The translations under genes were made by a program, and so were the position numbers. Under the pieces are notes generated by a model that worked only from the letters and a program-made list of their open reading frames with translations, was not told where the DNA came from and did not search any database. Positions 4,361 through 25,120 of a stretch of 64,000 nucleotides of DNA are shown here, one piece after another. Each line of letters opens with the position of its first letter. Positions within the stretch are counted from its first letter, which is position 1. The DNA lies in IMG/VR virus record IMGVR_UViG_3300041955_001927; one strand, 5' to 3'. This DNA is from an uncultured virus (IMG/VR IMGVR_UViG_3300041955_001927). Taxonomy: Duplodnaviria; Heunggongvirae; Uroviricota; Caudoviricetes.

Positions 4361-4408
4361 CCGGCTGACGTGGCTCTTCGCCGGCCTCCCCTCCGCCGTA
4401 AGAGTTTA

Positions 4409-5415: not shown

Positions 5416-6333
5416 TCAGTTCGTAGAGGTCTCTGGTCTCTTCCGGAAGTACTCCTCAATTAACACCGCGGTCCCTGCTTGCATCTGTTCCTCATGACGA
5501 TCACGAAGCCAGTTGTAGATCCAGTCGAAGACGAGCGGACTTCGAACCCGATGGTCAAAGATTTCATTTTGCAGGTGCCGAGACTCGACAGTCGCTTCGT
5601 CCGGAGTAAGCTGGCCGGACACAGCACGCCGCCAGAGCCCTTCCGCAAGTTTGCGCACACGTTCGGCGTTTTCAGCGGCGTCGTTGTTTTCTCGGTGGAT
5701 TCGGACAAGCAATATAAGCGACGGCTGAATCATCAGGACTACTGACACCGCGTTGACAACGGTGGCACCCGACAGCATACCCAGCACAACGATCACGATG
5801 ATGGCCAGAACTACGACGATCATTGCCGTTCTGGCATAACGCTGGCGAAGGTTCCGCTCCCACCAGCCGCAAGAGCGCTGGCACAGCAGCCGCGCGAGGT
5901 GAAGGGGAATCTTCTGAACGTTCGCCGGATACCAATCCTTCAGCTTTTCAAAATCCGGATCAGACTCTCCCTTATCGTGGTGCTTCGAGAGCAGCTCAGG
6001 CTCAGCCCGATCCCCGGCTTTGCAATCCGACCACTGCAACTCGAGTACATCGCAGTCAAATTCCTCCTGGATTCTCGCCGCCTTCGACTTCTTGTCCTTT
6101 ACCATCGGACTGAGGACCAGGACGTCAAGCAGCGTGGCGCAACACGCCCATAGCGACGCGTATGGTTTGAGTACCGGATTGGCCAGCGAGAGCCCGGACC
6201 AGATGATCACTGCCATGGTGCTGACGGCGATCAGCCACACCTGAATCCGCTTCGCTTCGGAATAGAGATCTCGCTGTGCGGCGAGACGCCGAAGGTTGCG
6301 GAGCGAATTCTGAGTAACGACGATCTGGTTCAT
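5416..6333 (-). CDS. S-4TM (SMODS-associated 4TM) pore-forming CBASS effector
   Basis: Four hydrophobic segments; motifs LAAQR.LYS.AKR, AARIQEEFDCDVL, LKDWY, LLCQR, QNEIF.HR...PLVFDWIY; TGATG coupling to the cyclase. Confidence 0.85.
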   Translation of the reverse strand: MNQIVVTQNSLRNLRRLAAQRDLYSEAKRIQVWLIAVSTMAVIIWSGLSLANPVLKPYASLWACCATLLDVLVLSPMVKDKKSKAARIQEEFDCDVLELQWSDCKAGDRAEPELLSKHHDKGESDPDFEKLKDWYPANVQKIPLHLARLLCQRSCGWWERNLRQRYARTAMIVVVLAIIVIVVLGMLSGATVVNAVSVVLMIQPSLILLVRIHRENNDAAENAERVRKLAEGLWRRAVSGQLTPDEATVESRHLQNEIFDHRVRSPLVFDWIYNWLRDRHEEQMQAGTAVLIEEYFRKRPETSTN

Positions 6334-7208
6334 CAGTAATAATAGGGCGTAAATTGCCCGTTGAAGAGCATGTTCCACCAGTAGAACGCGTCAGCGAGAT
6401 TCCCTCTGGTCTCCGCGTCCCTCGCCTTGTCTATTCGAGAACGTGCGGTCGCGATCTTTGAAAGTGCGTCCTGCAGCTTGGCTCCAGTCGCACACGGGGC
6501 AATGTAACCCGATACGCCCGCCGGATCCTGCAGCGCTGGGAGGTTATTGTCGTGCAGGAAAGAGAACACCCTCTGCAGGTCGATTGAATAGAGGATGGTC
6601 GACTCACCAGATGCGTACTTTGCGACCCTCATCTCCAGATAGAAAGACGAGATCGGAACCGCGTTGTAATATTTCCAGGCCTTCAGGAACCTCACAAGGG
6701 GCTTCACCTTGCCGTTCAGCCGCTGATGTTGAGTCAGCACGTAGGCATTATGTGCATCCGGGCTAACGTCCATCCACTGTCTGCCACAGTTGGGAATCTG
6801 GAAAATCTCGAAACCGGCGGCGTTCGTGCCGCGGGAATGCGCCGGAACGATTTCATGCGCCTCGGCGCGACCGACTCCGAACGGCACGGTCACGGCAGGA
6901 CATCGCACGGAAACACCGGTGAATGGAAAGCGCCGATCAAGAACTCCCCTCATCGTCTGTAGTACATAGTCGGAATCATTGTTCAGGTCGGCGGTGGCGA
7001 CTGAGGCAAAATAATCCACGTCGCTGTACCCGCTGATACTCGTGCCATTGCCGAATGATCCAGTCCTGAAGAACCGCTTCACTGTGTAGCTGTTACGAAG
7101 GCACTGGTCTATTGATGCTCTGTGGTTTTGTGCGCTTACGGATTCAGTTGCACTGGGCGTCAACTTCGCGAGGAAATCCCGGAAGCCTTCATCAAGTGTT
7201 CGGGGCAC
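6333..7208 (-). CDS. SMODS / CD-NTase cyclic nucleotide synthase (CBASS)
   Basis: GSFGNGTSISGYSDVDY nucleotidyltransferase motif, EIVPA, KPLVRFLKAWKY, SSFYLE, LQDPAG; GTG start after GGAGG. Confidence 0.9.
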   Translation of the reverse strand: MPRTLDEGFRDFLAKLTPSATESVSAQNHRASIDQCLRNSYTVKRFFRTGSFGNGTSISGYSDVDYFASVATADLNNDSDYVLQTMRGVLDRRFPFTGVSVRCPAVTVPFGVGRAEAHEIVPAHSRGTNAAGFEIFQIPNCGRQWMDVSPDAHNAYVLTQHQRLNGKVKPLVRFLKAWKYYNAVPISSFYLEMRVAKYASGESTILYSIDLQRVFSFLHDNNLPALQDPAGVSGYIAPCATGAKLQDALSKIATARSRIDKARDAETRGNLADAFYWWNMLFNGQFTPYYY

Positions 7209-7280: not shown

Positions 7281-9149
7281 CTACGTTCCGGTCACATGGT
7301 AGCCAGACAGTGGGCCTGGGCGGTTGGGACTTCCCATGTATACGTCCATACGACTTTTCTCATCAAGGACCGGAAGAACGCCACCAATCGCGACTGCGAG
7401 CTGAGGATACTCTCGCTGGAAGGTGTCGTCGTAGTTGTCGGAGATGAACGTCGGGACGGCCGGAACTCGCCGGAAACGGAGAGGCTTGCCGCCGAACTCC
7501 CAAACACGATCAGCGAGAGCCTTTATGTTCGGCATGTTGGCACCGCCCCCGGTCAAAACGATCTGAGCATTATCGGCGACGGTCGCCCAACTGACGTCAA
7601 CTGAACTCAGAAAACGCTGCACGGCTTTTTCGATTTCATTGACAACTCCCTTGACTTGTTCGTTGCCGAGAAACTCATCGAGACTGATAGATACAGTTTG
7701 ATCCGTGCTGTCCAGGGTGGTTTGTATCTCGCCGGTTGTGAACAGACGTTCCTTTAGAGAGCGGAGGCCCGTGAGCCGAAGGCCCGTCTCGATTCGCTTT
7801 CGCACCAGCTCATCGGAGCTGCCGTGTGCTCGGGCGATCAATTGAAGCAAGAGCCTCTCATCAATGAAGTCTCCGGCCATCCTGATAGCGTCGCTGTATG
7901 GAGCCACCTGGAAGGCCTTGCGCTGAGGGGAACCGATATTCTGTACGACCCAGAACAGAGAAAAATCCGTCGTGCCAGCACCAACGTCAATAACCATTAC
8001 AAGATTCTTCGTACTGGAATCTGCCCATACACGCCCAGATCCGGCTGCCAAGGGTTCAAGGATGCCCCTTGCCCCACTCGCTTTATCCAGCAGGTAGGAC
8101 AATCGGCTATCGTGTGCGCCGGCGACGGAAACTGCTGCCCTCCAGTGTTCGGCGGGAATACCTGAATGCCACTTCCCGTGGAATGTGTCCGCCAGAATCT
8201 GAGCGCGAGTCATATACTTCGCCAACGTAGATTCCGCCCAGGACCGTTGGGCCGGCTGCCAGGCGGGCACAGTAAAGCGGCGCTTCACGTATCGTGACTT
8301 CCCCTGGGCGGCGAGTTCAGTGACACTCAGGTCCGTTAGGTAGGCCAGAAAGAGGCAGATGGCGTCCTCGTAGCTCAATGGCACTGAGGTCGGATTGAGC
8401 TCTGGTTCAAGACGACGGGCCGCTAAATTATGCTCGTAGGCCACGAGCGTCAGCTGTTGTTTGACTGAGTCGAGTCGCCGCCGATTCCCGTCGCTGAGCA
8501 CAGCATGCGCACTCCGGCGCATTGCTTCCGAACCCACGTAGAGCAAGCCATCGTCGGAAATCCAAATAGATGAAGCCACGGTGTAAATGGCATCGGCGTC
8601 GCCGTCCAGCCGGCCAAGCCCAAGTTCGATCAGTTCAGGATCGGGGTCATCGTCGCCATCCGATATTGAAGCAAAGGCCTTCGATCTGGCTGTGCCGAAG
8701 TCGAGGCACAAGACACACTCGGGGTTCTGCGGCGCGTCAAACGACAGAGCAGTCTCATCCAGTAACGGAGCCCCAGAAATAGGTTCTGCGACAGGAACGG
8801 TGGGGCCGACATCCGGGATCAGCGGTGTTTGGGCATCCGCATCTCCCGCCGACTCGGTTACCGAAGCCGCCGCATTGACCGGCAGGACATTATCCGCAGA
8901 TTCGGAGGCTGACTCAGCCACGGGCTCAGCTCGAATAAACTCATCCTGTGTCACCAACGGAACCGCTCTTGTTTCTGGCGGCGGTACACGTGCAGCCGGT
9001 GCCTCTTCACCGGACGTCAGCACGGAGCTTAACGCCGCCCGTTCCAGGTTGGAGACGGCACTGAGAAACTGTGGCGCTTCGCGTCTCGCATCAGCCTCCA
9101 GTCTTTCCAACAAGCTCGTCAGTAGTATTCGCGCTGTTTGCTCGTCCAT
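7281..9149 (-). CDS. Hsp70/actin-fold ATPase (nucleotide-binding domain only, long acidic Ala/Pro N-terminal linker)
   Basis: LCLDFGT (phosphate 1), LEPLAAG, IDVGAGTTD (phosphate 2), AGDFID, LKERL, LTGGGANMP (adenosine), LAVAIGG; AGGAGG SD. Confidence 0.85.
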   Translation of the reverse strand: MDEQTARILLTSLLERLEADARREAPQFLSAVSNLERAALSSVLTSGEEAPAARVPPPETRAVPLVTQDEFIRAEPVAESASESADNVLPVNAAASVTESAGDADAQTPLIPDVGPTVPVAEPISGAPLLDETALSFDAPQNPECVLCLDFGTARSKAFASISDGDDDPDPELIELGLGRLDGDADAIYTVASSIWISDDGLLYVGSEAMRRSAHAVLSDGNRRRLDSVKQQLTLVAYEHNLAARRLEPELNPTSVPLSYEDAICLFLAYLTDLSVTELAAQGKSRYVKRRFTVPAWQPAQRSWAESTLAKYMTRAQILADTFHGKWHSGIPAEHWRAAVSVAGAHDSRLSYLLDKASGARGILEPLAAGSGRVWADSSTKNLVMVIDVGAGTTDFSLFWVVQNIGSPQRKAFQVAPYSDAIRMAGDFIDERLLLQLIARAHGSSDELVRKRIETGLRLTGLRSLKERLFTTGEIQTTLDSTDQTVSISLDEFLGNEQVKGVVNEIEKAVQRFLSSVDVSWATVADNAQIVLTGGGANMPNIKALADRVWEFGGKPLRFRRVPAVPTFISDNYDDTFQREYPQLAVAIGGVLPVLDEKSRMDVYMGSPNRPGPLSGYHVTGT

Positions 9150-9157
9150 ACATCCTC

Positions 9158-10600
9158 CTATTCGACGGGTTCTACGATACCTTTTCGCACAATTCGGCGG
9201 CCACCAGACGCAGCCGGAGCTTCAACAGCAGGGCGGACCACGCGGACGGTCCGAATGCCGGGTCGCAAGCCGCCAGCCATCTCATGCTCAGTCGGCAAGA
9301 AACTAACGACATCGCCAATCTGCCCTCTAAGTGCCAGGGACCGAACGCGCACTGCGGTCTCCACTGCGTTACGAATGCTTCGCAGTGTACCCAGCATCCT
9401 GGACAGCGCAACCGCAGTCTGGGGCACTGTTACATTGATTTCCGGCATCGAGTCACGCTCGAACGTCTCCTCCATGCTGCGCAGCCGGGAGCAGTCGATC
9501 AAGAGGTCGGCAAGAAATTCGTCATATTGAGCAGCCTCCGTCTCCGCAGCAAAGGCGCTCTTTCGTCGCACAGGGGTACCAGACAGCCAGCGCGCGAGAT
9601 CTTCCGGAAGACCTGCACTTTTATGAAGGACATCCAGCGCCGCCTTTCTGGCCCGGGAGTCGTTCCCGGCGGCCAGTACCAGCCGCGAGTACAATCCGTC
9701 ATCTGCGACGCCTGCCCTCACAAGAAGTTCGAGCGCCTCTTTCAGATCCCTCGCGATCAGGTTGGCGGACGGAGACTGTTCCGCAAAATTCTCCCAACTG
9801 TAGTCGCGGTACCAACCGCGGACCACTTCCATCGCCGAGTAGGTCTCCTCGGAAGTGACACAGGAGAAGCGCGCCCTTACGATCCCCTGAACGAGCCTCA
9901 GCGTTTCTTCCGCGAGTTCGTTGATGACTCCCGGGTTCACAGCAGCAGGCACGTTTTGCATAGATTCAACGAGAAATTTTCGCAGGCAAACGCCAGCAGA
10001 CTCCCCCGGTTCCTTTGGCGCCGTTGAGTACACCGAATTTATGCTCTCCAGCACTCGACGGAGTCGCTTAGCCTTACTGTCACCGGGCTTCTCGGTGTCA
10101 AAATTCAGCCGACGCATCGGCTCAGTCAGTTCAACCAGCGCGCCAGCGAGGTCTGGCGAAAGGGAGAGCACGCCTTCGATACATTCGAGTCGAACGGGAT
10201 CGGAGCCTTCCTCCTGAATGGCACCTGCTGCAAGGTATGACCTGACCCAAGGCTGTTCCACGAACCGCCAGCAGGTGGCCACGTAACGTCGATCATCCGG
10301 ATCGGGCACTGTCTCCAAGGGTGCCAGGCGATTAACCAGGCCGATCTTGAGGCTTTCAGTTATCCGATCCCGCCACTGCTTAAATAGCGCCGCGCTCTGC
10401 AGAAGGATGGCTGCAACCGTGAGGCGCTCCGCGTCATCTTTCGACTCACGAAGCGCCTGCGACAGAGCCTCGATTCCTCTAGCGAATTCTGGCTCTTTAG
10501 CCGCACGGTGATGCTGCTTGAGTTTCTTCAGGTTGGAAAAGCCTTCGGCTTGCGCCGCGACGCTTTCACCCGCTGCAAAGATTTTCAGGTCACGATCCAT
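9158..10600 (-). CDS. Helical-repeat protein with C-terminal GrpE-like head
   Basis: Mostly helical; ends ...ALRGQIGDVVSFLPTEHEM...TVRVVRPAV...RIVRKGIVE, resembling the GrpE G-x-x-FDPxxHEA...V..V...G...R..R.A.V pattern. Confidence 0.6.
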   Translation of the reverse strand: MDRDLKIFAAGESVAAQAEGFSNLKKLKQHHRAAKEPEFARGIEALSQALRESKDDAERLTVAAILLQSAALFKQWRDRITESLKIGLVNRLAPLETVPDPDDRRYVATCWRFVEQPWVRSYLAAGAIQEEGSDPVRLECIEGVLSLSPDLAGALVELTEPMRRLNFDTEKPGDSKAKRLRRVLESINSVYSTAPKEPGESAGVCLRKFLVESMQNVPAAVNPGVINELAEETLRLVQGIVRARFSCVTSEETYSAMEVVRGWYRDYSWENFAEQSPSANLIARDLKEALELLVRAGVADDGLYSRLVLAAGNDSRARKAALDVLHKSAGLPEDLARWLSGTPVRRKSAFAAETEAAQYDEFLADLLIDCSRLRSMEETFERDSMPEINVTVPQTAVALSRMLGTLRSIRNAVETAVRVRSLALRGQIGDVVSFLPTEHEMAGGLRPGIRTVRVVRPAVEAPAASGGRRIVRKGIVEPVE

Positions 10601-10633
10601 ATAAGAACTTTCGGTCGCTCGAGGCTCTTTCCG

Positions 10634-12703
10634 TTACTCCACCAGTGCCTTAAAAACGGCATCCGCCGCGTCTTTATAAAACTCAATGCTGATCCGGGTC
10701 CACAGATCGTCGGGCAAGTCGTTCAATTGCCGGCGGGCTGTCACAGGCACCAGCAGCGTCTGAGCCTGCTTGTCAATTGCGAGTTCAGCGATCTGGACCG
10801 CGTTCGGGAGCATATCGATCGAACCGCCAAGGTTAAGCGCGCCGACTACAATCGTGCCGCCTCTCGTGTTCTTACCCAGCAGCGACCCACATAGGGCTAC
10901 CAACACCGCGAGCCCCACACCGGTCCCTGATTTGTCGGCGTCGATGGCGCGCATCTGGATCGAGAATTCATGCTCGCGGGGATCCCGATCGCCGACGAGC
11001 TCCTTGGCGCGCGTGTAGAGGTTCTGCTCGCCAATCCTGACACTTTCGCGGAGAGCCGGTGGCACCGGCTGGTTCAGGATCTTTACACCGCCGCCCGGAC
11101 CCGAGGTTACCTCCAGCCGATAAAGTCCCGCGCCCGTTTCAGGCGAGCCGATGCTGACGGCCCACACTTGTCCAGGTGGCAACGGATCGCTCTCGATGGC
11201 CTCATCACTGTGCAACTCCGGTGTGGCTACAAATTGTTCGACACCCTCCGAGCCCATCGTGTAGCTGAAATGGGTGTTGCGGAACTCGCTCTTGAACACC
11301 CGCTTTTGCTGTTCCTTCACGCGGCGGCGACCTTCCAGTGCAATCCGCACGATCCACTCAAGATCGTCATCGGGAACGCCGGTTTCCGAGGAAGGAAACA
11401 GAAGTTTCAGCAAGCCGCTGACGGTCTTGTTGACCGCTTCGATATCGCGCCCACTCAAAGCGCCGCCAAGGTGGACGCGCCCCTGCATCAGGTTTACCCG
11501 GCTGCCGGCGCGCAATTTATTCCAGCACTCGCAGAGGAAATCGCTGACCAGTCCGAAGTGGTCCGTCAGATGGTCGCTCGCCTTGAGCTTCGGGAAATCC
11601 CATCCCGGCGCGAATGCGTGGAGGCGGTCCATGAACGCAGTGTCGTTGCGCATCTCCGGCGGCAGCGGGCTTAAGAGATGTCCAATCCTCTGCTGCTGTT
11701 CGACGTCGACGTCGAAGTTGCCAACCATGACGAGACTTCCGTCAGCGCGGATATTCTCTTTCCCGCGGCTGAACTGGCCCGAAGCCATGTAGCCCTTCAT
11801 GATGTTCACGCCGTCTTTTTGGTCGAATGAGATTCCGGAGATCTCGTCGAAGCAGACCACGTCGTACTGGCAGACGAGGCCGCGCTGCCCAGAGGCGTTG
11901 TTGACGAACATCTTGGCGACGGTCGCCTTGCCTCCTGAGATCAGGTGCGAGTACGGAGAGATTTGCTGGAACAGGTGGCTCTTTCCCGTTCCGCGCGGAC
12001 CGAGCTCCACGAGGTTATAGTTGCGCTCCACAAAAGGCACCATGCGGAGCAACGCCACTTTTTTCGCCCGTTCGTCCAAACTCAGGGGCTCCAGGCCGAT
12101 GGATCGCAACAGAAGATCGATCCACGCCGAGGTCGTAAACTTAGCCCGCCCCCGGGCCAGCACTTCCAGTGCATCCGACTTGGACATCTGGATGGGCCGA
12201 AGAGAATCGATCGCAAACGGCCTGCCGCTATTCTCCTGCGCCACAACGGCGTCATACGACAGCGTCACCTCGGCGTAAAAGCCGTCGGTGAGCATCCGTT
12301 CGTTCTCCCGAACCAGCTCATCGGCGATCCGGACTTCTTTCAGCGCCAGACTCGGCAGCTCGGCTACATAGCAATCGTTGCGCGTGTCGAGGCGAGCACG
12401 CACGATATCGATCAGCTTGATGGAGCCTTGTTCCTTCGCGCGCGCCTTGAAGAGCTCCTCCTCGCCGGTGCGAACTGTACGGTCTCGCAGTTGCTTCTCG
12501 ACAATCGCGAGGCCCTCTTGGATCTCCTGCTCATCGACGCTAGCGCAGTAGCGCCCTAACAGGAACTCGACCACGTAAGTGGGCACCGGGTATTGCCGCG
12601 AGTACTTCCGAACCAGATCCTTCCGGACGAGATATCCGTCAAAGGCTGCAGCGGCAAGTGTGTCCAAATTGTCCAGCTTTGCATCCATTGAGCCTGCGTT
12701 CAT
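10634..12703 (-). CDS. brxL: BREX Lon-related ATPase BrxL
   Basis: VPTYVVEFLLGRYC, ELGPRGTGKS Walker A, YDVVCFDE, MKGYMASGQFSRG, DTAFMDRLH, Lon-like C-term; ATGA overlap with pglZ. Confidence 0.92.
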   Translation of the reverse strand: MNAGSMDAKLDNLDTLAAAAFDGYLVRKDLVRKYSRQYPVPTYVVEFLLGRYCASVDEQEIQEGLAIVEKQLRDRTVRTGEEELFKARAKEQGSIKLIDIVRARLDTRNDCYVAELPSLALKEVRIADELVRENERMLTDGFYAEVTLSYDAVVAQENSGRPFAIDSLRPIQMSKSDALEVLARGRAKFTTSAWIDLLLRSIGLEPLSLDERAKKVALLRMVPFVERNYNLVELGPRGTGKSHLFQQISPYSHLISGGKATVAKMFVNNASGQRGLVCQYDVVCFDEISGISFDQKDGVNIMKGYMASGQFSRGKENIRADGSLVMVGNFDVDVEQQQRIGHLLSPLPPEMRNDTAFMDRLHAFAPGWDFPKLKASDHLTDHFGLVSDFLCECWNKLRAGSRVNLMQGRVHLGGALSGRDIEAVNKTVSGLLKLLFPSSETGVPDDDLEWIVRIALEGRRRVKEQQKRVFKSEFRNTHFSYTMGSEGVEQFVATPELHSDEAIESDPLPPGQVWAVSIGSPETGAGLYRLEVTSGPGGGVKILNQPVPPALRESVRIGEQNLYTRAKELVGDRDPREHEFSIQMRAIDADKSGTGVGLAVLVALCGSLLGKNTRGGTIVVGALNLGGSIDMLPNAVQIAELAIDKQAQTLLVPVTARRQLNDLPDDLWTRISIEFYKDAADAVFKALVE

Positions 12704-15036
12704 GCTTTCTCCCCTACGCACGTGGTCTGACTTGCGATTACCTTTCCTTCGGGGTCCATCAAAACCACAAAAGCCGCGGCGCCCTCATGGGTGTCGTCGG
12801 GAACCGCCAGGCTCACTTCGCCGCTGGCGCCCACCTCTTTAACCACTGCGGCAATGCTGGTCCCTTCCTGCTTCCAGCTCTTTCGCAAATCCACGCGCAC
12901 CCTCGGTTCATTCGATTCCACCCTGACGCGACATCTCATTCCACGCCACTCGACCGACTGGATCACTGCGTAGATCGCGTTTGTGCCCCGTTCGACCACC
13001 AATTCCGGGACAACGCATTCCTGGGGGCTGATACCGCCGTGCGCATAGTTTTCACCGGCCCGGAAACAGGCAATCCCGGGCGGCGAGGCGATTCTCACTT
13101 CGGCGTTCCAGTACCAGGAGGAGACGGGAACAGACAGATCGGGCTGGCCCTTCACAAGTGCGCATCTCGCCCATTTGGTTTCGACCAGGTATGCGGGAAG
13201 GTCGACCTTCGGCAGTCCGCCCGGCAGCAAAAGCCAACCATGGTCGGTGACAATCCGGACGCGACGCCAACCGGCATCCAACAAACCGAAGGCGCGTTCC
13301 GCGATCCGGTCAACCTCACCCTCCAGCTGATAGACCAACTCACTCTGCAGCTTATGGCCGAGGCTGTCGATGGCACCGGACTCCGTCCATCCGCCTCCAC
13401 TTGTTCCGGCGGGTATGCGCGTCTCCGTCGAATCCAGGACTTCGATACCCTCGTCCTCGAGTCGCTGTCGCAGCAATGGGGCGATCAGCGGTTTCCACCC
13501 TGACTTCGACTCGATAAATGGCGTGAAGTCCACCCCGTCCCCACCCTTGATGCCAGCGGTGATCGGGGTGGCTGCGGGCTTTGCCGTAGCAGTAACAGTC
13601 GGCAAAGCCGCCAGCCGATGTGTCATAACCACTCGCAGGGACCGCGCTTCGAGTCTTGCCGCCAGCTTGCCGGCAAGATCGAATCGGAGCCCGTCCACGA
13701 ACATCAGGCAAGTATCCTTCTCCGCAGTTGACCGGCCAACGGCCTTCCTCGCTTCGCCGGGTTCCCTGGCAACGAGCGACTGGAAATGCCGGGCGGAAGA
13801 ATCCAGCCAGGGCTCATAGAGAGACCGGACCACCTTGCCCAGCACGGTCGCATCCGCTGCGTTACGGGCGCGGGCCATCGCTTCCATCGCACCGCTATCG
13901 CATTCCCATCCACTATCGGCGTAAGAGGCGGCGGCGGCCGAGAGTGTGGCTCCGTCCACTGGCTTTCGTGCAGTCTGGGCCAACCGCGCTAACGGTCGCA
14001 GTGCCAACGCCCACGGGCTGAGATCCGTTCTGGCCCAAACCCAATCGCGTCGCACAGCGTGACGAGCTTCTAGCTCCAACACTCGTGCGCAGGCGGCTGA
14101 GTGTGGCAGTTGCGCCGCAGCGTCCAGGTCGCGGCGGAGTTCAGCCTCTTCGCGCTCATTGATGCTTGGATCGCGGGAAGGATCGAGCGTCAGTAATCCC
14201 TGCCCGGCCCCCGTCGGTTCCCGAAGGAGACGGGCGACACCCGGATAAATTTGCGGAGCTTCAGAGAAACGATTCCAGACGCGGTCCAGTCGCATCTCAG
14301 CGCGAAGGAGCAGGCCCGCCACCTCAGCTGCGGGAATTCGATCCGGATCGAAGCCAAATTCCGACTGGCAAAGGTTTCGGAACGATTCCCATCGCGCACC
14401 CTTCGCGCTGGATTCGAAAGTCTCCGGATTATTGAGCCACAGCAGCAGGTCGCGGACCGGATCCTGTACGGAAAGTTTGTCGAAGTCGTCGGAGTCCAGC
14501 CGCCGGCCTTTAAGGGTTCGAGTGTCGGCCTGCGCCAACAGCGGGAGCGCCCGGAGGAATGCTTCCTCGGTACGCCGGTCAGAGGCGACATCCAAACCGA
14601 GGCCCTCATCGGAGACCAGAAACGACCTGACGGTCCAGTCATTTCCGCTCTTCGGTTGATACCAGGCGCGGCCCCGATATTGAAGCTCCACAAGGGGCTG
14701 CAGCGACGGCGGGCAATCGCCGGCGGCTCGCAGATCCTGACGGTTGACGCGTGGCAGGTAAAGTACGGGTGTTTCCCCGGTCGGCGGCGCTTCTGGGACG
14801 GTTCGATCAACGATGCACCTGAGCCATATAGCGGGTCCAGTACGAGCCTCTCGATCAAAGCGACCCAACGTATAGAAATTCGGCAATGCGGCTCGCAGAC
14901 TCTCGGCCAACGGCAACCATTGGCCCTCCGTGTCAGTCCAGAGCAGGGCGACGGGCTGAGCTGTGCCTTCCGCCGCTCGAGTTGAGGCCGCCAGTGACTG
15001 TTTCAGCGCGTCGAGCAAGCTTCGCACTTCCTTCAC
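12700..15036 (-). CDS. pglZ: BREX phosphatase PglZ (type B-like)
   Basis: MFVDGLRFD, ALPTVTATAK, IDxxGH, IVTDHGW, YAHGGISPQECVVP alkaline-phosphatase-fold motifs. Confidence 0.92.
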   Translation of the reverse strand: MKEVRSLLDALKQSLAASTRAAEGTAQPVALLWTDTEGQWLPLAESLRAALPNFYTLGRFDREARTGPAIWLRCIVDRTVPEAPPTGETPVLYLPRVNRQDLRAAGDCPPSLQPLVELQYRGRAWYQPKSGNDWTVRSFLVSDEGLGLDVASDRRTEEAFLRALPLLAQADTRTLKGRRLDSDDFDKLSVQDPVRDLLLWLNNPETFESSAKGARWESFRNLCQSEFGFDPDRIPAAEVAGLLLRAEMRLDRVWNRFSEAPQIYPGVARLLREPTGAGQGLLTLDPSRDPSINEREEAELRRDLDAAAQLPHSAACARVLELEARHAVRRDWVWARTDLSPWALALRPLARLAQTARKPVDGATLSAAAASYADSGWECDSGAMEAMARARNAADATVLGKVVRSLYEPWLDSSARHFQSLVAREPGEARKAVGRSTAEKDTCLMFVDGLRFDLAGKLAARLEARSLRVVMTHRLAALPTVTATAKPAATPITAGIKGGDGVDFTPFIESKSGWKPLIAPLLRQRLEDEGIEVLDSTETRIPAGTSGGGWTESGAIDSLGHKLQSELVYQLEGEVDRIAERAFGLLDAGWRRVRIVTDHGWLLLPGGLPKVDLPAYLVETKWARCALVKGQPDLSVPVSSWYWNAEVRIASPPGIACFRAGENYAHGGISPQECVVPELVVERGTNAIYAVIQSVEWRGMRCRVRVESNEPRVRVDLRKSWKQEGTSIAAVVKEVGASGEVSLAVPDDTHEGAAAFVVLMDPEGKVIASQTTCVGEKA

Positions 15037-15149
15037 AGCAGCCTTCCTTGCTCAGCCACTTCTAGGGTTCGTCTAGCCATCTCTTCAATGCGCCCCGCCA
15101 CTTTCGCGATCAGATCGAGTGACACGGAGTTCTGTCGTCCCAAGTTCAC
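15033..15149 (-). CDS. 38-aa ORF coupled between pglX and pglZ
   Basis: GTG start overlaps the pglX stop (GTGA) after AGGAGG; its TGA overlaps the pglZ GTG; MNLGRQNSVSLDLIAKVAGRIEEMARRTLEVAEQGRLL. Confidence 0.5.
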   Translation of the reverse strand: MNLGRQNSVSLDLIAKVAGRIEEMARRTLEVAEQGRLL

Positions 15150-18100
15150 GCGCCCTCCTTCTTTCGTCTGCGTTCCCGGGCCTGTTGCTTGGCAGTAGGT
15201 GAGTAGTGCAGATCATTCCATCGCGCGCCGTCGAACTCATTGCCACCTTCGAAGTCTTCTGTCTGACCGTCCCATGCCCAGAACCAAGGGAAATCCTCCT
15301 TCGTGCGCCAGTGCTCCTTGCCTTTGTCCTTCCCGTATGAAACTGCAGGTGTGACGCGTAGGATACAAGAGCCCTTTTTCGGTTTGGTACTTGGAGCTAG
15401 GTTTGCCGTAAGCCATGGGCGGATGTTCATTCGAACTCCGTCATTGAGATCCGGATCCCAACTTATGGGTTGTTGGTCCAGCGGCTTCCACCGGACGAAA
15501 ATGTCATACGGCTTCTCGCCCGCGAGGATTTTCTCAAGTTCTCCCTTTAAATGGAGGGCCGCCGTTAAGCGCCCATCAGCGCCTTCGGAGCCGGAGGCGA
15601 CTTCCGCTCTTTGACGTGTGATCCAGTCGCCCAATGAAGTGAAGATTAGCTTCTCGAGGCTTTTCCGCCCCTCTCCATTCGGTGCTGCCAGCTTGTGGTA
15701 GTTCACCAGGACGTGGAAGCCGTCATCGCGACCGTCCCATATGTGCCACACGAATGGGCATTGCTGAAATGTTCGGCAGTGCTCTTCGAAAAACTGGTCA
15801 CGTAACCAGAGTTCGAGAGATTCAGCACCGTTCAACAAATCAGTGAGCTTTGCGGAAGACCAGTCACTCCCGTAGGCATCAGCAAGCAAGGCCCGAAGTC
15901 GGTCTGCGGCGCTCGCCTCGCCCCCAATGGAGCTTAGGCACACAATGCCGTCGTTATCGGCATGCTTCTTTAACCTGTCAGCATCAAGCGACGGGCAACT
16001 CGGAAAACTGGATCCCGTTTGGCGAGGCCAGCGATAGCCCACCAATCGCGCCACCGCCGTTTGAAGAGGCAGGTTGGAAGTCGAAACACTCCCGTCACAA
16101 GTTACCTGGTCAAGAGCTGCAATCGGGGCGGAAGGGAGGCCGCCGAGGAGGTTCTTCGTAGCCTTGTCGCGCCATTCTTCGATGTTGAAAGGCACATCAG
16201 TAATGACGCTAGTAGCGGCCGACACGCGAGGGTCGATAGTCCGCACATACCGTTCATATTCTGACGATCGCAAGAACGAGTAAATAGGCAGCAAATCCGT
16301 CTCGTTCTTCGGGCAGACCAACACAGCCCCTTTGGAGAAGCATCCGCCATTAAAAAGCGTCGCGGTTATTCCGCGGACTCGTCCAACCAGAACCCCCATT
16401 CGGCTCCACATCTGCGTGTTCTGAATGCGGGCCTGGGTGCTTTTCGACAGCTCGCCGGTCCCTTTTTGCCAAAACACGACCAATGAAGAGTCACAGTACT
16501 CAGAGTCCACATAGCCAGGGCCGCAATAGCTGTACCAATCTCCCTCGCAGCCGACTTCCCAGAAGCGTCGCAAGAAACGATTTGCGTCTCCTGTCGAAGA
16601 GCCTTCACCTGAGTTGACAAATTGCGATAGCGAGGTGCCTTCTCGCCGCTCTGCAATTGAGATTCTCGACCCTCGAGAGCCTGCAAGGGCCGACTGGCTC
16701 AGTGTATTCAGAGCTGGCGAGCAATTGACACCTGGAACTTCCTCACCGCGCATGAGGGCAGCTTTTGCCTCCATGTCTACAACCGGCGATCCAGGTTTTG
16801 TTGATACATCCAAACCAAGGAACCGTTGATCCTGGGCCGGGGCGTGGGATTGCGCTACCAACAAGACCGTGTTGGGCCCACGATTCCCGAAAGTCCACCA
16901 AGCCTCCTCGCCTAGTACAACCGCGATTCGAAAACTCACCTCGTGGAGGAACCGCTTGCGAAAGGCGCCGTAGTCTCGGCCCACCCACCAGTTCTGAGGA
17001 AGAACAAGGGCAAGCCCACCTCCGTGACTCAGAAATGTTCTGCAGCGGTGGAGCATAAGGGTCGCCAAGTCCGCTGCCGCGTCACTGGCATACCCTTCTG
17101 CAAAGCGAGCGAGGGTCTCGCAATGGCCCTCTCTACCGAGGTACGGAACATTAGTGCAGACAAGCGAGAACTTGGACGTCAAGAACTTCGTTGCTGTAGC
17201 TATGCCGCTTGCGGCAATCGCCAGCTCTCGAATTTCATCACTCGACTGCTCGGAAGCGATGGCACGCTCAAAGATCGCTCTGATTTCTTGGTACTCCGCA
17301 ACAAAGAGATTCGCCGATAATTTTGTTGGATCGATCAAGCTGCCCAATACTGACGCATTCGAGAACAGACTATAGAGCTTGCTCAGGGTTTCTCTGGCGC
17401 GCCCGTCACCACCAGCAAGCCGCAGCCAATCAGTTTCGGGTGCGTTGATACTCAGTCCCGAACAGGCGAGGTTCAATTGAGGCAACGCAAAGTGCCCGCC
17501 GGCCAGACGCCAAGCCGCCAGCGCCAGATTGAACGCTGCGATCTGGGAACACCTCGGATCTAACTCCAACCCGAAGAGGTTGTCCCGGAGTGTGGCGACA
17601 ATGGCCTCCTGAAGCGACAGCCCTTCCTCGTCCATGCGCATGTGGGCCAGGATTGGCAACGCGAACGCCAAGAAGTGCCCACTGCCCATCGACGGATCCA
17701 GCACGCGAAGGTTACACGCCGATCGGGGCCAGTCTTCAAATGATCCGCCCGCGGGAGAGCCATCCTCCTGCATGCGCAAATAGCTCCAATCGTATCCAGG
17801 CAAGGCTGGACCCTGGCCTAAGGCGCGGCGCTTTGCTGCCCACCAAGCGCCCAATGTGTTCTCGAGCAGAAAGAGGACCATGTAGTCCTCGGTGAAGAGT
17901 TGTGTGACGGCAGGGAGTTCATCGCCACCGATCTTAACTTCGGACTTGTTGACCCGATCCTTTTCATCCCTTTGCCAGAACTGGTAAACCCACCCGAGGC
18001 TGTCGTCGGCTCGAAAAACCTCTGCTGGTAGCGTTGAGAGCTTCTCCTCGAGTTGCTGGCGTGTTTCCGGGGGAAGTGAGACGCGCAGCACCGGATCATC

Positions 18101-18580
18101 TGGCTGGAAAACGGAGAGTAACATCTTTTGCGCAAGCTCCGCCGCAATCTCAAGCCAATCCCGGTTCTGTTCGCGCGCCAGTTCCCGGACCTCCTCAAGG
18201 GTCATGGCCATGCCGTGATCCGCATCCAACAAAAGGTCGTTCTCTGCGAGGAATCGCGCAAAGAGCATCCGGTGCCAATGCTCGTAGGCGCAGGCTTGCA
18301 CCAGGTGATCGATGTCCTGCGTGTCCCGCCGATCATCGCGCCGGTCGCCGAGTTGGCGGCCGTGGGCACGAAGTTGGTTGCGCAGGTCGCGCGCCGCGGC
18401 TTTTTCTGACCGAGTCTGTGGCGAGTCGCCTTCAATGTCCTTCATATGCGGCCACGGTTCATGGTGGTGGACCGCATACTCACCGACGAGAACTTTGCGA
18501 GCACCCGCCTCGGCGATGGCTCGTGCCTGGGCCACTGTGTTTTCCAGCAGTCGGCGATGATCTCGGTTCAATGTTGGCAT
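15146..18580 (-). CDS. pglX: BREX adenine methyltransferase PglX (BrxX)
   Basis: LGWVYQFW, PAVTQLFTEDYMV, VLDPSMGSGHFL (motif I), TNVPYL (motif IV variant), WDPDLNDGVRMNIRP. Confidence 0.9.
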   Translation of the reverse strand: MPTLNRDHRRLLENTVAQARAIAEAGARKVLVGEYAVHHHEPWPHMKDIEGDSPQTRSEKAAARDLRNQLRAHGRQLGDRRDDRRDTQDIDHLVQACAYEHWHRMLFARFLAENDLLLDADHGMAMTLEEVRELAREQNRDWLEIAAELAQKMLLSVFQPDDPVLRVSLPPETRQQLEEKLSTLPAEVFRADDSLGWVYQFWQRDEKDRVNKSEVKIGGDELPAVTQLFTEDYMVLFLLENTLGAWWAAKRRALGQGPALPGYDWSYLRMQEDGSPAGGSFEDWPRSACNLRVLDPSMGSGHFLAFALPILAHMRMDEEGLSLQEAIVATLRDNLFGLELDPRCSQIAAFNLALAAWRLAGGHFALPQLNLACSGLSINAPETDWLRLAGGDGRARETLSKLYSLFSNASVLGSLIDPTKLSANLFVAEYQEIRAIFERAIASEQSSDEIRELAIAASGIATATKFLTSKFSLVCTNVPYLGREGHCETLARFAEGYASDAAADLATLMLHRCRTFLSHGGGLALVLPQNWWVGRDYGAFRKRFLHEVSFRIAVVLGEEAWWTFGNRGPNTVLLVAQSHAPAQDQRFLGLDVSTKPGSPVVDMEAKAALMRGEEVPGVNCSPALNTLSQSALAGSRGSRISIAERREGTSLSQFVNSGEGSSTGDANRFLRRFWEVGCEGDWYSYCGPGYVDSEYCDSSLVVFWQKGTGELSKSTQARIQNTQMWSRMGVLVGRVRGITATLFNGGCFSKGAVLVCPKNETDLLPIYSFLRSSEYERYVRTIDPRVSAATSVITDVPFNIEEWRDKATKNLLGGLPSAPIAALDQVTCDGSVSTSNLPLQTAVARLVGYRWPRQTGSSFPSCPSLDADRLKKHADNDGIVCLSSIGGEASAADRLRALLADAYGSDWSSAKLTDLLNGAESLELWLRDQFFEEHCRTFQQCPFVWHIWDGRDDGFHVLVNYHKLAAPNGEGRKSLEKLIFTSLGDWITRQRAEVASGSEGADGRLTAALHLKGELEKILAGEKPYDIFVRWKPLDQQPISWDPDLNDGVRMNIRPWLTANLAPSTKPKKGSCILRVTPAVSYGKDKGKEHWRTKEDFPWFWAWDGQTEDFEGGNEFDGARWNDLHYSPTAKQQARERRRKKEGA

Positions 18581-18589
18581 GGCGTTCTC

Positions 18590-21500
18590 CTACTGAATCT
18601 GCACTGGCCCATTTGGCAGAGTGTTGAGCAAACGATCGCGCTGGCGCGCTAACCACGCTTCCACGTCGGCTTCTGTTTTCAGGACACTACGTTCGAGGGT
18701 CACAAACTGGACCTTGGGCTCAAGCAATTGCGCCGCCTGTTGCAGGGCCTTGGCGACGCGCGCGGGAATAGCCTCGGCTTCAGTTCTCCGGGCTGCCAGA
18801 TTCTTGGCGTCGAGAGCACTCAACAGGGCTTCGTCGCTGCTGACGTCAGGTTTCGCGGGTGCCTGCAGTCCTACTTCAGCGAGGATGCGCGACTGATCCG
18901 CGGCGGAGATTTTCTGCCACGCAGCATTTTCCGAAAGGCTCTCGGTAGCTACCTGGTAGGCAGACTGGTGCGAGTCCTGGGCAGCGTTCGTCGCCTGACG
19001 CAGGAGGTCTGCCAACCCAGTGCGCAATGGGGCCACTGGATCGGGATCGGCCAGCAACAGACGGCTGCTCCGAACAGCATCGCGCTGGTTAAGGGCCGGC
19101 TGCGCTTCGGAGAGAGTACCCGCGTGACCTGCCAGCCGCTCGAGTGTCTGCCAGGCTGGCCGACGTTTCGCGATGAGGTCGCGAGTCTTCTTCCACTCCG
19201 CGATCCGCGTCTTCAGTTCCGTCTCCTTGAGGCGAAGAGCGGACAAGCGGTCGTTGCCAAACTGCTTCTGGATGTCTTCGATATCGGCGACGGGCGGCCG
19301 CGCAGGCGCGGGTGCGTCGCCGCCGGCATCAGATGCCAGCTTCAGAAGCGCAATGAAGAACTCGGGTGCCTTCGCATCCAGTTCGTCACCCTTTGCCTTA
19401 ATGTCGAGCTCCTGGTACAGGGCACGGAGAGCGTTGCGGTCCGGAATACTGAGGGTGATCTTCTCAACACGGAATTCGGTCTTCGGAACTTTGTTCTGGT
19501 CAAGCTGGCCGACGGGCAAGGAGACGCCATTCAACGTTGCGGTGACGTGCTGGCTGCGGTGCAGAACGACCAGTGCAGCATCGACCGCGTCGCGAGGCCA
19601 GCCGAAGGGGCTGGATTCCAGTTCCTTGCGAAGTTGCGTGCCCGTCTTACCAGAGCCAATAGCGGAGAGCACTTGCCGGCAAACCGGGTGCTGCTCGATG
19701 GGGCCATCGTATTTGAGCGGGGAGAATGGCTGGTCGGCACCGTCGCGGGCCCGCTTAAGCGCCGATTCCCATGCCGAACCCGAGAAGTCGGCTTCCTTAA
19801 ATCGGGGGAAGAGACGAGCCAGTGCCGCGTCGGACCCTGCCCGCAACTTTTCTTCGAGTGAAAGCTGGAGCAGTTCATTGCCGCCGCCCTGAAAGACCTT
19901 GGTGCCGACAATGATATCTGCCACCAACACTTCCCGCTGCTGTTTGGCGAGACGGTACCGGCTCTCCATGCTTTGCCGGGCAATCTGTCCTTCGGGCGTC
20001 GCTGGCGCGCCCTTTGCGTTGATGGTCTGCTCGGCCGCCTGCTCGGTCGCGATCAGATTGAGCAGCTCATCCCGGGACTTCCGAGGAATGAAGACGAAGA
20101 GCATGGGGCTGTTGACACCTATCGCTCGTGCGGCGTTCAGGATTTCCTTTTCTGAGGTCGAAAATCCGTCGCGCAGCCAGACCGGGATGGATTCACCGTC
20201 CGCGAGGGGCGGGTCCTGAGATCGATGAACTTTGAAATCGCGGGGAACCTTCGCGGCACCGTGCAGCAGTGTCTTCTTTACTTTGTCAACAATCTTTTGA
20301 ACGTCTGCGGCCAGTAGCTGGTCGCGCCGTTCGTCAAAGAAGGCGGCGTCGTTCTTGAGTTTTGCCTCGCGCTGCTGGAAATCGTAATGCCAGTTACGGC
20401 CCTCTTCGGTCTGAATACGAAATTCGTCGCCGACCTGCATGAGAACGCTGTCTGCCGCGAGCTTGTCGAGCAGCCGTGCGACGTCTGCCCGGAGCTTGCC
20501 GTTGTCGGCAGCAAGGTCGTCGACCAGGAGATCGGCGACATGCTCCTTGTTGGCACGTACACCGATGTCGGCCCCGCCGTCCGTGGGCAGCTGGCCGATG
20601 AGAAAAACCAACCCGCAGATTCTTTGCTGGAGTCTTCCCTCCACAGATCCGTCACGTCCCAACGTGACGATTCTTTCGTTGATCTCACGTGGCAGCGCTC
20701 CCGTCGTGACCATTTCCGGAGCGAGCGCCTCGTAGAGATCATCGCCGGGAATGAGTCGGCCGAGCGATTCCGCAGTGATCTTGGCGACGCAGTCATGGAT
20801 GATTCGAAGCTGCGAGCGAAGCTGGCTCTGGGTTCCCGCCGTGTCGACCTGCCGGAAGCAATGCTCCCAGAAACGGCGCCGCACCGGCAGCAGGGGATAG
20901 TCTTCGACGATAGTGGCTTTGTCTTCCAGCCGCTCTCCGATCTTGGTGCCCTGAAGCTGCCGGGAGATCTCGCCGGCGTGCGTTGCAAAAAGCTCGGCGA
21001 TGGGCGTGAGGGCGGAAGGCTGCTTGCGGAGCAGCACCTTGCGGGTGACGGTCTCGACATCCGCGTCGGAAAGCTGAATGCGGATCGTGAAACGGTCGAG
21101 GAGCTTGTTCAGCAGCTTCACACCGGTGAGTGCCGACTGCCCGGCCGCAACCAGCATCACCTGGCTGTCAATTTGTTTACACAAGGCTTCGGCGATTTCG
21201 GTAATGAGCACAGAACGGGTTTCAGAATCCCCGATATATTGCTGGGCCTCGTCGAGGATCAGAATTGTGCACGGGATCTGTCCATCCTTGCCGGCACGGA
21301 CGAGTACGCGCTTCGCCATATACAGGAACTCTTCAGTTGTGAGATCCGTTGTTCGAAGGGCAAACTGAGTCCTAATGATTTCTTTGGCAGCGCCCTCGCT
21401 GGTGGCGAAGTTCGGGTCGCACGCAAGCAGAGCCTTTGTGATCAGTGGGCTGACGTACAGATTGTTCAGTTCCTGTGCCCACTTCTTGCCGGTGGCTTCT

Positions 21501-22069
21501 ACCGCACCTTTCACTTTTTCGAGAATTCCGCGCTCTTCGAGCCACAGATGGAACTGAGCCTGAGGGTACTGAGTCGGCAGCCCACAGGCACGAAGGAGGA
21601 TGCCGAGAACGCTGAGGCGGACGTTCTCCGTGGTTCCCGCGGGAAGGGTTCCGGCGGCCGCGAGCAGTCCCCCGCTGCGCTTGGCTGCGACGTCGAGCTC
21701 CCGAAACAGATCGCGCACTTCCTCGGGCAATTCCGGAACGAGACTGCGGGCGGTTGCGCCGTCCGAAAACTTCGTATCCTCCCAGAGGTGGCAGAGCATC
21801 TTCAGCAAGTGCGACTTACCACTGCCGAAGAATCCGCTCACCCATGCGGCTTTCTGGTGGGTCTGACTGCGATTGCCGAGGAAGGACGACAGGATCGTGA
21901 TCATGCCCTCGGCGTACTGGCCCTCACAGACGAAGGTGGAAAGTTCGCCCCGCAGCTCCTTCCTGACGTTGTCGTCCGCGCTCTCATTGGTGATTCGAGC
22001 CTGACCGTTGTTGACCAGCCCTTCTTTCGAAGGGTCGCGAAGTAAAGTTTCCCGAATGAGCGTCGGCAT
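18590..22069 (-). CDS. brxC: BREX P-loop ATPase BrxC
   Basis: ELSTFVCEGQY, WVSGFFGSGKSHLLK, LILDEAQQYIG, YPLLP; TGATG overlap with brxB. Confidence 0.92.
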   Translation of the reverse strand: MPTLIRETLLRDPSKEGLVNNGQARITNESADDNVRKELRGELSTFVCEGQYAEGMITILSSFLGNRSQTHQKAAWVSGFFGSGKSHLLKMLCHLWEDTKFSDGATARSLVPELPEEVRDLFRELDVAAKRSGGLLAAAGTLPAGTTENVRLSVLGILLRACGLPTQYPQAQFHLWLEERGILEKVKGAVEATGKKWAQELNNLYVSPLITKALLACDPNFATSEGAAKEIIRTQFALRTTDLTTEEFLYMAKRVLVRAGKDGQIPCTILILDEAQQYIGDSETRSVLITEIAEALCKQIDSQVMLVAAGQSALTGVKLLNKLLDRFTIRIQLSDADVETVTRKVLLRKQPSALTPIAELFATHAGEISRQLQGTKIGERLEDKATIVEDYPLLPVRRRFWEHCFRQVDTAGTQSQLRSQLRIIHDCVAKITAESLGRLIPGDDLYEALAPEMVTTGALPREINERIVTLGRDGSVEGRLQQRICGLVFLIGQLPTDGGADIGVRANKEHVADLLVDDLAADNGKLRADVARLLDKLAADSVLMQVGDEFRIQTEEGRNWHYDFQQREAKLKNDAAFFDERRDQLLAADVQKIVDKVKKTLLHGAAKVPRDFKVHRSQDPPLADGESIPVWLRDGFSTSEKEILNAARAIGVNSPMLFVFIPRKSRDELLNLIATEQAAEQTINAKGAPATPEGQIARQSMESRYRLAKQQREVLVADIIVGTKVFQGGGNELLQLSLEEKLRAGSDAALARLFPRFKEADFSGSAWESALKRARDGADQPFSPLKYDGPIEQHPVCRQVLSAIGSGKTGTQLRKELESSPFGWPRDAVDAALVVLHRSQHVTATLNGVSLPVGQLDQNKVPKTEFRVEKITLSIPDRNALRALYQELDIKAKGDELDAKAPEFFIALLKLASDAGGDAPAPARPPVADIEDIQKQFGNDRLSALRLKETELKTRIAEWKKTRDLIAKRRPAWQTLERLAGHAGTLSEAQPALNQRDAVRSSRLLLADPDPVAPLRTGLADLLRQATNAAQDSHQSAYQVATESLSENAAWQKISAADQSRILAEVGLQAPAKPDVSSDEALLSALDAKNLAARRTEAEAIPARVAKALQQAAQLLEPKVQFVTLERSVLKTEADVEAWLARQRDRLLNTLPNGPVQIQ

Positions 22070-22629: not shown

Positions 22630-22631
22630 GG

Positions 22632-25100: not shown

Positions 25101-25120
25101 CGCTTTCAACCTTTCAACTC

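Follow-up and report, generated by a model that had tools for sequence, protein, structure and literature searches.

An Hsp70-type nucleotide-binding domain and a solenoid protein with a GrpE-like module: predicted domain anatomy of the candidate defence system PDC-M61

What is the pair of genes that directly follows the type 1 BREX (bacteriophage exclusion) operon in a 64,000-nucleotide (nt) stretch of DNA from an uncultured virus of the Caudoviricetes (IMG/VR record IMGVR_UViG_3300041955_001927), and does it belong to the operon behind which it lies? The stretch at its full length is referred to here as the window, and the two genes as A and B. An earlier reading, made from the DNA sequence alone, had taken them for a new defence system appended to BREX and composed of an Hsp70-type ATPase and a protein with a GrpE-like head. 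The comparisons presented below place the pair within PDC-M61, a candidate system of the PADLOC catalogue, and suggest that it is probably an autonomous two-gene defence system built on an ATP switch of an Hsp70-type nucleotide-binding domain (NBD) and a putative exchange factor.

The layout is that described in the sequence-only reading. A begins 33 nt after the TAA stop codon of brxL, its own TAG is separated by 8 nt from the ATG of B, B is preceded by the Shine-Dalgarno sequence AGGAGG, and all the protein motifs quoted in that reading are present.

9158..10600, minus strand: gene A (PDC-M61A), open reading frame (ORF) of 480 amino acids (aa), ATG start
7281..9149, minus strand: gene B (PDC-M61B), ORF of 622 aa, ATG start
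9154..9159, minus strand: ribosome-binding site AGGAGG of B, read from the sequence and overlapping the TAG stop of A

Both are real genes rather than chance ORFs, given the size of their families: of 8000 scored candidates 483 are relatives of B at E<=1e-3, and A has 784 at the same threshold, 518 at E<=1e-10 and 353 at E<=1e-30, counted as cluster representatives; the length of A is uniform across its family, at about 480-490 aa. Four contigs of ~150 nt that are 95-99% alike to part of B occur in one run guessed to be RNA, which does not amount to evidence of transcription.

Comparison with the PADLOC models identifies the pair. A matches four PDC-M61A models with E-values of 1.1e-53 to 4.1e-47, near full length (5-479 of 489), and B matches PDC-M61B at E 3.9e-116, with residues 1-592 aligned to model positions 1-557 of 588. 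Like the genes of PDC-M61, the two lie next to each other on one strand and in the same order. On these matches the pair is a member of this candidate system and nothing different in kind. PDC-M61 was predicted by guilt-by-embedding, in a preprint, from genes embedded in BREX, DISARM (defence island system associated with restriction-modification) or type I restriction-modification (RM) loci. According to that preprint, defence systems are over-represented among the genes that lie within BREX, DISARM, type I RM and Hma operons; of the candidates from Hma, seven were confirmed, and the PDC-M61 candidates entered PADLOC without individual testing. The PDC-M61 models in the catalogue carry no domain description. 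The main text of the preprint mentions no Hsp70, actin, HscA, MreB or chaperone, and its supplementary tables may hold annotations; the main text of a 2026 survey of BREX (PMC12839542) contains no Hsp70, GrpE, DnaK or ASKHA term. Our literature searches returned no printed account of the domains or function of PDC-M61. Contrary to the sequence-only reading, the pair is therefore not new as an object; what is new is its Hsp70-NBD/GrpE-like anatomy and, since the pair is already listed as a defence candidate, a testable idea of its mechanism.

The domain architecture of B can be summarized as follows.

9006..9149, minus strand: residues 1-48, conserved two-helix head (helices 3-21 and 34-45 in the model)
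8790..9005, minus strand: residues 49-120, disordered acidic Ala/Pro linker, predicted local distance difference test score (pLDDT) below 50
7359..8762, minus strand: residues 130-597, Hsp70-type NBD, from Foldseek and from a profile against PDB
7284..7358, minus strand: residues 598-622, disordered tail with conserved Gly/Pro positions, pLDDT below 50

The structural model and profile comparisons indicate that B is an NBD of the Hsp70 type that has kept its catalytic motifs intact and lacks a substrate-binding domain (SBD), in agreement with the sequence-only reading. In a Foldseek search with the AlphaFold model (mean pLDDT 77.7) the best 50 matches were all Hsp70 NBDs (DnaK, BiP) with E-values of 2.9e-17 to 1e-14, and targets consisting of the NBD only were matched with TM scores of 0.63-0.67. 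A profile of 21 homologues of B run against PDB gave Hsp70 proteins in rows 1-53 (best 6.5e-8), with MreB appearing from rank 54. Pfam returned matches to MreB, HSP70 and FtsA, all under cut-off: MreB scored 23.2 bits against a cut-off of 27 within residues 378-557, and HSP70 (PF00012) 19.1 bits against a gathering cut-off of 20.6 over residues 378-547. The characteristic motifs lie at residues 150 (DFGT), 365 (EPLAA), 388 (DVGAGTTD), 425 (AGDFID), 533 (TGGGANMP) and 585 (AVAIG). None of the 21 homologues departs from the phosphate-1, phosphate-2, connect and adenosine motifs; DFGT, EPLAA, DVGAGTTD, AGD..D and TGGG align to the motifs of BiP and do not vary either, with D150, G152, T153, K157, E365, D388, G390, G392, T393, D395, G426, D427, G534 and G535 all being invariant. 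In the model the fold ends at residue 597 and a C-terminal SBD and lid are absent; as the protein ends 25 residues past the ATPase fold, after a disordered tail, it has no SBD. In this tail G606 is invariant, and G612, L614 and G621 are nearly so. Composition and model also agree on the acidic Ala/Pro linker and the small helical N-terminal domain: residues 46-130 have an A+P content of 34% and a net charge of -11, the linker varies in length and sequence among the homologues, and the head retains the invariant residues L14, R16, L17, D20 and E36.

The N-terminal region differs in certain relatives of B. Some B proteins of Vicinamibacteria, 683-699 aa in length, carry an additional N-terminal SAP domain, a DNA-binding motif, before the two-helix head (L014:2065-4146 and L015:9674-11773, and also P0108, P0110 and P0115). 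Variants of 913-940 aa have, in place of the short head, a conserved helical domain of ~300 aa followed by a Pro-rich linker (L065:8753-11497, L071:8729-11470 and L074:4040-6862); this helical domain has no family in Pfam.

Protein A has no family in Pfam or NCBIfam, and its two parts were delineated on a confident AlphaFold2 model (pLDDT 93.8).

9581..10600, minus strand: residues 1-340, ARM/HEAT-like alpha-solenoid, all-helical in the model, from Foldseek and VIA-align
9161..9565, minus strand: residues 346-480, GrpE-like module, consisting of a hairpin (349-419) and a beta domain (421-480)

Foldseek with the whole model recovered ARM/HEAT repeats only, designed armadillo proteins, importin alpha and Ric-8A being the best (E 3e-4 to 1e-2), and GrpE surfaced just in VIA-align, a Foldseek-independent fold search over 48,161 chains. 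Here the N-terminal part matched HEAT/ARM proteins at Z 8-9.3, and three GrpE representatives stood within the best 35 rows: 1dkg_B (Z 8.2, root-mean-square deviation (rmsd) 5.1, 106 aligned, model residues 346-480), 4ani_A (Z 7.8, rmsd 4.3, 107 aligned) and 9bls_B (Z 8.4, rmsd 13.3, 142 aligned). Among the matches listed, the aligned range extends to residue 480 of A only for the GrpE rows; most of the other listed rows end at the hairpin, and two helical-bundle rows extend to residues 465-466. Profile-profile comparison points in the same direction. With GrpE sequences drawn from 10 genomes that carry the pair, hhalign aligned the C terminus of A to 7 GrpE at a score of 31.2 (P 4.2e-4) and to 12 GrpE at 30.1 (P 6.5e-4), and a 197-row alignment of A gave 29.4 (P 3.7e-4, 82 columns), the alignments spanning 64-82 columns overall. 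The controls remained lower, with reversed alignments at 12-14.5, 60 and 40 column shuffles at maxima of 16.8 and 16.4, and 9 unrelated query windows at 10-20.1. Short motifs of A lie at residues 429 (GDVVSFLPTEHEM), 452 (VRVVRPAV) and 469 (RIVRKGIV); hhalign pairs G..V.FSP.EHE of A with G..FDP..HEA of GrpE and, with the 197-row alignment, also RVVRPAV with RVLRPAxV. In single-sequence searches, phmmer of A against PDB gave a weak match to Cap2 (E 0.017) and no GrpE, and the ESM Atlas returned only clusters labelled 'hypothetical protein'. From the VIA-align matches and the hhalign scores above controls, we read residues 346-480, as modelled, as GrpE-like in fold and as lying outside the Pfam GrpE family; they are probably GrpE-like by origin as well.

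A and B are inherited together. A scan of genome collections yielded 194 relatives of B, from which 78 loci were kept, and a homologue of A accompanies B in 67 of them, which bears out the co-conservation expected in the sequence-only reading. A lies directly upstream on the same strand in 61 of the 78 loci, where the distance between maximal ORFs ranges from -229 to +74 nt and nine cases overlap by 4 nt, and is convergent downstream of B in two (L058, L068); two contigs (L027, L038) begin inside B. A is missing from nine loci, namely six with a divergent B (<= ~29% identity, five of them short, 447-496 aa) and three of Bryobacteraceae. A is best read as the dedicated partner of B. Complex prediction was run with three chains (B 1-48, B 128-598 and full A, A being the partner) and with alignments of our own, and gave a score of 0.56, the best of 3 controls scoring 0.00. 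The corresponding mark was passed in the benchmark by 116 of 157 solved complexes and by 2 of 215 mismatched pairs, and passing scores of 0.60 or under comprise 18 of the 157 solved complexes and both of the passing mismatches; given the different alignments and the three-chain set-up, these counts hold just roughly for A-B. The runs share at least 62% of contacts and the partner has a pLDDT of at least 81. The pass may also reflect mere likeness, since solved DnaK-GrpE complexes exist. The prediction thus lends weak backing to A-B binding, and no interface was reported.

In the divergent clade with short B proteins a third gene overlaps the end of B, coding for a Macro-domain protein at L075:11317-11985, which is BREX-adjacent, and for a class I methyltransferase at L076:11317-12075. 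In L001, L002 and L020, the three loci of Bryobacteraceae, a gene for an Hpt phosphotransfer protein occupies the position of A, and hybrid histidine kinases are encoded on the opposite strand.

The immediate surroundings of the pair in the window include two further defence systems.

10634..23444, minus strand: type 1 BREX operon (brxA, brxB, brxC, pglX, pglZ, brxL), from PADLOC, directly upstream of A
22632-23444, minus strand: brxA, from PADLOC
10634-12721, minus strand: brxL, from PADLOC, with A directly downstream
5416..7208, minus strand: two-gene CBASS (cyclic oligonucleotide-based antiphage signalling system), 72 nt downstream of B
6333-7208, minus strand: CD-NTase, PADLOC Cyclase 4.2e-110, Pfam SMODS
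5416-6378, minus strand: 4TM effector, PADLOC 4TM effector 1e-94, Pfam S_4TM

All six BREX proteins are matched by PADLOC with E-values from 8.6e-89 down to 0, and on the minus strand the intervals from brxL through A and B to the CD-NTase gene contain neither terminator-like nor promoter-like sites. To place this arrangement among the 78 loci, neighbours were clustered, representatives were annotated and these were mapped back by tblastn, together with a smaller, directly scanned set; 24 of the 78 loci are without neighbour annotation. BREX or Hma operons enclose or adjoin the pair in 24 of the 78 loci, where it occupies four different positions; together with further defence-type neighbours this upholds the defence association of its homologues. 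The commonest position, in 15 loci, is between HmaB (a DUF1156 methylase) and HmaC (a DUF499 ATPase), where the pair often adjoins other embedded candidates (HEC-05, HEC-08, HEC-09, PtuA, TIR). Six loci fall in type 1 BREX, at two positions, with the pair after brxL, as in the window, in L006, L029, L031 and L075, and between pglX and pglZ in L041 and L024; in 3 loci it stands between BrxC (DUF6079) and PglXI of a BrxF-type BREX. By the tests used, neither BREX nor Hma surrounds the pair in 54 of the 78 loci. A PADLOC scan (E<=1e-12) of 122 proteins, encoded by the two genes on either side in 31 further loci, gave defence-type matches in 10 loci, a transposase-type match in one and none in 20. 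Other neighbours of the pair include PtuA, TIR, GmrSD-like, CapP, DndB and SoFic proteins. Its distribution over Acidobacteriota, Pseudomonadota and Myxococcota is patchy, and a FastTree phylogeny of 74 B proteins, from which 4 short rows were left out, requires at least 14 changes of context label.

With 24 of 78 loci embedded, at four positions, and with many loci standing alone, the pair is an autonomous, horizontally mobile two-gene cassette that has landed repeatedly in insertion hot spots of methylation-based defence operons, rather than a part of BREX. Its position behind BREX in the window is an island or hot-spot effect, and the functional tie to BREX that the sequence-only reading had considered falls away. 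The same applies to the suggested link to the adjacent CBASS: a CD-NTase or CapP occurs near the pair in just one of the 78 loci (L026), and a role of the pair as a bridge between BREX and CBASS was dropped, this adjacency not being conserved. Just upstream of A in two BREX-less loci are 3' remnants of brxL (L004:8378-8452, with 25 aa at 100% identity to the BrxL of the window, and L025:8078-8239, with 54 aa at 56% identity), which suggest that the cassette stayed in place while the BREX operon hosting it was lost.

The B protein of the window falls in a Bryobacterales clade of the FastTree phylogeny. Three other wetland or peat metagenome runs (X2, X4 and X6), each from a different study, contain contigs with at least 99% likeness to the window over part or nearly the whole of positions 7281-10700, and this occurrence fits the acidobacterial, Bryobacterales-like placement of B. 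L029 and L031 are identical BREX-plus-pair loci in metagenome-assembled genomes labelled Bacteroidia and Pseudomonadota, which reflects either a binning error or a very recent transfer.

How might such a cassette work? In the mechanism that we propose, the GrpE-like end of A would dock on the nucleotide cleft of B and set the exchange of ADP and ATP, and A-B would operate as an ATP-driven switch. The solenoid of A, the tethered head of B, or both, might bind a target or trigger, conceivably a phage protein, or DNA where a SAP domain is present, and the nucleotide cycle would hold or remodel the target, clamping it and thereby blocking infection. The steps of this scheme differ in strength. Physical binding of A to B is likely, and an anti-phage function of the pair is fairly probable; for an exchange-factor activity of A the chances appear evenly balanced, and the sensing and output steps, including the sensing of a phage protein by the helical repeats that the sequence-only reading had proposed, are put forward with low confidence. 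A more radical variant, which we consider unlikely, is that the pair constitutes a minimal, self-contained Hsp70 cycle, made up of an NBD and a solenoid-GrpE fusion as exchange factor, and serves as an immune sensor, either as a guard or mimic of the phage-exploited host DnaK-GrpE or as an ATP-gated clamp in which the tethered head and the solenoid would catch a specific phage protein or DNA.

A number of results weigh against the proposed defence switch or against parts of it. The Pfam GrpE model PF01025 matched none of 39 C termini of A, even at E<=10; in a six-frame search of 10 pair-bearing genomes it recovered bona fide grpE only, which these genomes retain, and not A; and the C-terminal profile of A found no GrpE in PDB at E<=10. 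The fold similarity to GrpE, at Z ~8, is middling on the tool's own scale, and the hhalign probability is just 27-36%. The GrpE-like head claimed in the sequence-only reading is thus upheld by fold and, tentatively, by hhalign scores above controls, and fails at the family model. The coupling of the two genes likewise has exceptions: the six loci with a divergent B lack a detectable A, and L001, L002 and L020 possess an intact B (607-625 aa, ~50% identity; L001:9292-11806, L002:9261-11806, L020:9391-11800) with no A within 10 kb, on account of which B may function without A. A J-domain partner is missing too, as the sequence-only reading had noted, there being no Pfam match to the DnaJ family in the 17 flanking ORFs of the window that were scanned. 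A, B and their longer variants (B of 797-940 aa and A of 594-981 aa) contain no recognisable effector domain such as a nuclease, TIR or pore; among the longer variants, scanned for fused effectors, the sole Pfam match at E<=0.001 was to HSP70 in the B protein of L067 (797 aa), with 20.5 bits, under the cut-off of 20.6. The ATPase of Hsp70 proteins is slow even when stimulated, and on that ground futile ATP depletion was set aside as an output. The 20 of 31 further loci without a defence-type gene within two genes on either side also tell against a defence role. Finally, our literature searches found no experiment on PDC-M61; in the one other paper that names it, PDC-M61 shows a negative statistical correlation with the number of prophages in P. 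aeruginosa isolates.

Three other explanations have to be set against that of an autonomous defence system. The pair might be an accessory or regulator of methylation-based defence, with no activity of its own, that loads, recycles or switches, for example, a BrxC/DUF499-type ATPase or a methyltransferase of BREX or Hma. The 24 of 78 loci inside or directly beside such operons speak for this, as do the constant position of the Hma-embedded pairs between HmaB and HmaC, often overlapping the stop codon of HmaB, the location directly after BrxC in BrxF-type BREX, and the want of a terminator-like site between brxL and A in the window. It is nevertheless improbable: 54 loci have neither BREX nor Hma by the tests used, 20 of the 31 annotated ones show no defence gene in the two places on either side, and the position varies (after brxL, pglX-pglZ, BrxC-PglXI and HmaB-HmaC). 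Moreover, unrelated embedded candidates such as HEC-05 share the HmaB-HmaC gap with the pair, a mixed content that is expected of an insertion hot spot, and L004 and L025 keep the pair beside a mere 3' remnant of brxL. An alternative explanation, in which the pair has nothing to do with defence, is that it is a housekeeping or stress module, a chaperone-like ATPase or regulatory switch, that hitch-hikes in variable regions. Consistent with this are the annotated stand-alone loci without a defence gene in the two flanking positions, mostly from Acidobacteriota, the Hpt protein and hybrid histidine kinases adjoining B in L001, L002 and L020, the lack of an effector domain, and the finding that neither plasmid (E<=1e-10) nor phage (E<=1e-5) collections contain a match to B. 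However, embedding recurs at four positions in defence operons and in several phyla, the distribution over three phyla is patchy, and the other neighbours are of defence types such as PtuA, TIR, GmrSD-like, CapP, DndB and SoFic. Furthermore, solo loci are expected: according to the guilt-by-embedding survey, embedded candidates occur together with other defence systems less often than classical systems do. We therefore regard a non-defence module as unlikely.

The third explanation invokes the host. The pair might guard the host DnaK-GrpE machine, on which many phages depend, or serve as its decoy, engaging DnaK, GrpE or a phage-encoded hijacker of these and either starving the phage of chaperone activity or sensing the hijack. 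Replication of phage lambda requires DnaK, DnaJ and GrpE, the domains of the pair, an Hsp70 NBD and a GrpE-like module, match this host machine, and B would be no ordinary chaperone since it lacks the SBD. There are also reports that host DnaK represses the cyclase of a type I CBASS in a guard-like manner and that DnaJ mediates sensing by bNACHT25. Against this stands the tight co-inheritance of A and B across phyla with very different DnaK and GrpE sequences, which indicates that the cognate partner is encoded within the cassette; the complex prediction, too, gave its weak pass for A with B itself. A guard of the host chaperone is accordingly quite unlikely, and an autonomous defence system remains the reading that we favour.

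Comparison with known systems brings out both the resemblances and the peculiarities of the pair. With DnaK-GrpE it shares the Hsp70 NBD fold and motifs in B, and residues 346-480 of the A model superpose on the helical-bundle helices and the beta domain of GrpE and can be aligned, at low hhalign probability, to both of its conserved motifs. In contrast to DnaK, B has no SBD or lid and scores under the Pfam HSP70 cut-off; A has a solenoid of 340 residues where GrpE has a long N-terminal helix, and fails the GrpE model; and no J-protein is encoded beside the pair. Armadillo-repeat exchange factors acting on the eukaryotic Hsp70 NBD exist in HspBP1/Fes1/Sil1, and the ARM/HEAT-like N-terminal domain of A offers a possible lead towards these; they are absent among the listed fold matches of A. 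The CnuD/CnuCD proteins of type III CoCoNuT systems are reported to combine an Hsp70-like ATPase with HEAT-like repeats in a defence setting, often in BREX superoperons. As described, CnuD nonetheless keeps its SBD and has degenerate Walker-like motifs, predicted RNA binding and McrB/McrC homologues as partners, whereas the pair has intact motifs, no SBD and no McrBC, and carries its repeats on a separate protein with a GrpE-like module. The predicted GAP1-N2 GTPase conflict systems (Kaur et al. 2020, PMC7159879) likewise include HSP70 and its exchange factor GrpE, and some of them encode an additional HSP70 without the peptide-binding domain. They are described as multi-gene, GTPase-centred systems with FNIII/DnaJ/TPR proteins, mainly from Actinobacteria and Firmicutes, whereas the pair consists of two genes without a GTPase and is found in Acidobacteriota, Pseudomonadota and Myxococcota. 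None of the CnuD, GAP1-N2 and DnaK-CBASS cases is this two-gene architecture.

If the pair protects against phage, it would be a defence consisting of the parts of a chaperone cycle alone, with no nuclease, pore or nucleotide-degrading enzyme, and hence a mode of action new to bacterial immunity; there would then also be a connection with the reports of host DnaK and DnaJ gating other defences. Were the immune-sensor variant true, it would represent a chaperone-derived defence needing no enzymatic effector. The domain reading makes an anonymous catalogue entry experimentally approachable, and the family concerned is sizeable, with its 784 cluster representatives of A, and extends over several phyla.

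The window holds a wider, recombinase-adjoining defence island of ~27 kb that comprises PDC-M19, an HNH endonuclease, CBASS, PDC-M61, BREX and Shosta. Its remaining listed features are:

374-2071, plus strand: large serine recombinase, at the opposite end of the island
2478-3533 and 3530-4360, plus strand: PADLOC candidate PDC-M19 A/B, A carrying DUF488
4409-5353, minus strand: HNH endonuclease, in the island end spanning 374-5353 of the window
25276-25923, minus strand: ShosT (4.5e-48)
25898-27076, minus strand: DprA-like ShosA (2.5e-94)

The last two form a Shosta-like pair (25276-27076, minus strand) that adjoins the BREX island. Positioned 3 nt upstream of brxA is a gene for a 553-aa protein (23448-25109, minus strand) with weak, coiled-coil-type Pfam matches to Filament and ATG17-like under cut-off and no family in PADLOC. 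In L057 and L064, relatives at 39-46% identity lie no more than ~8 kb from the pair, and the protein may belong to these islands as another companion that is not yet listed.

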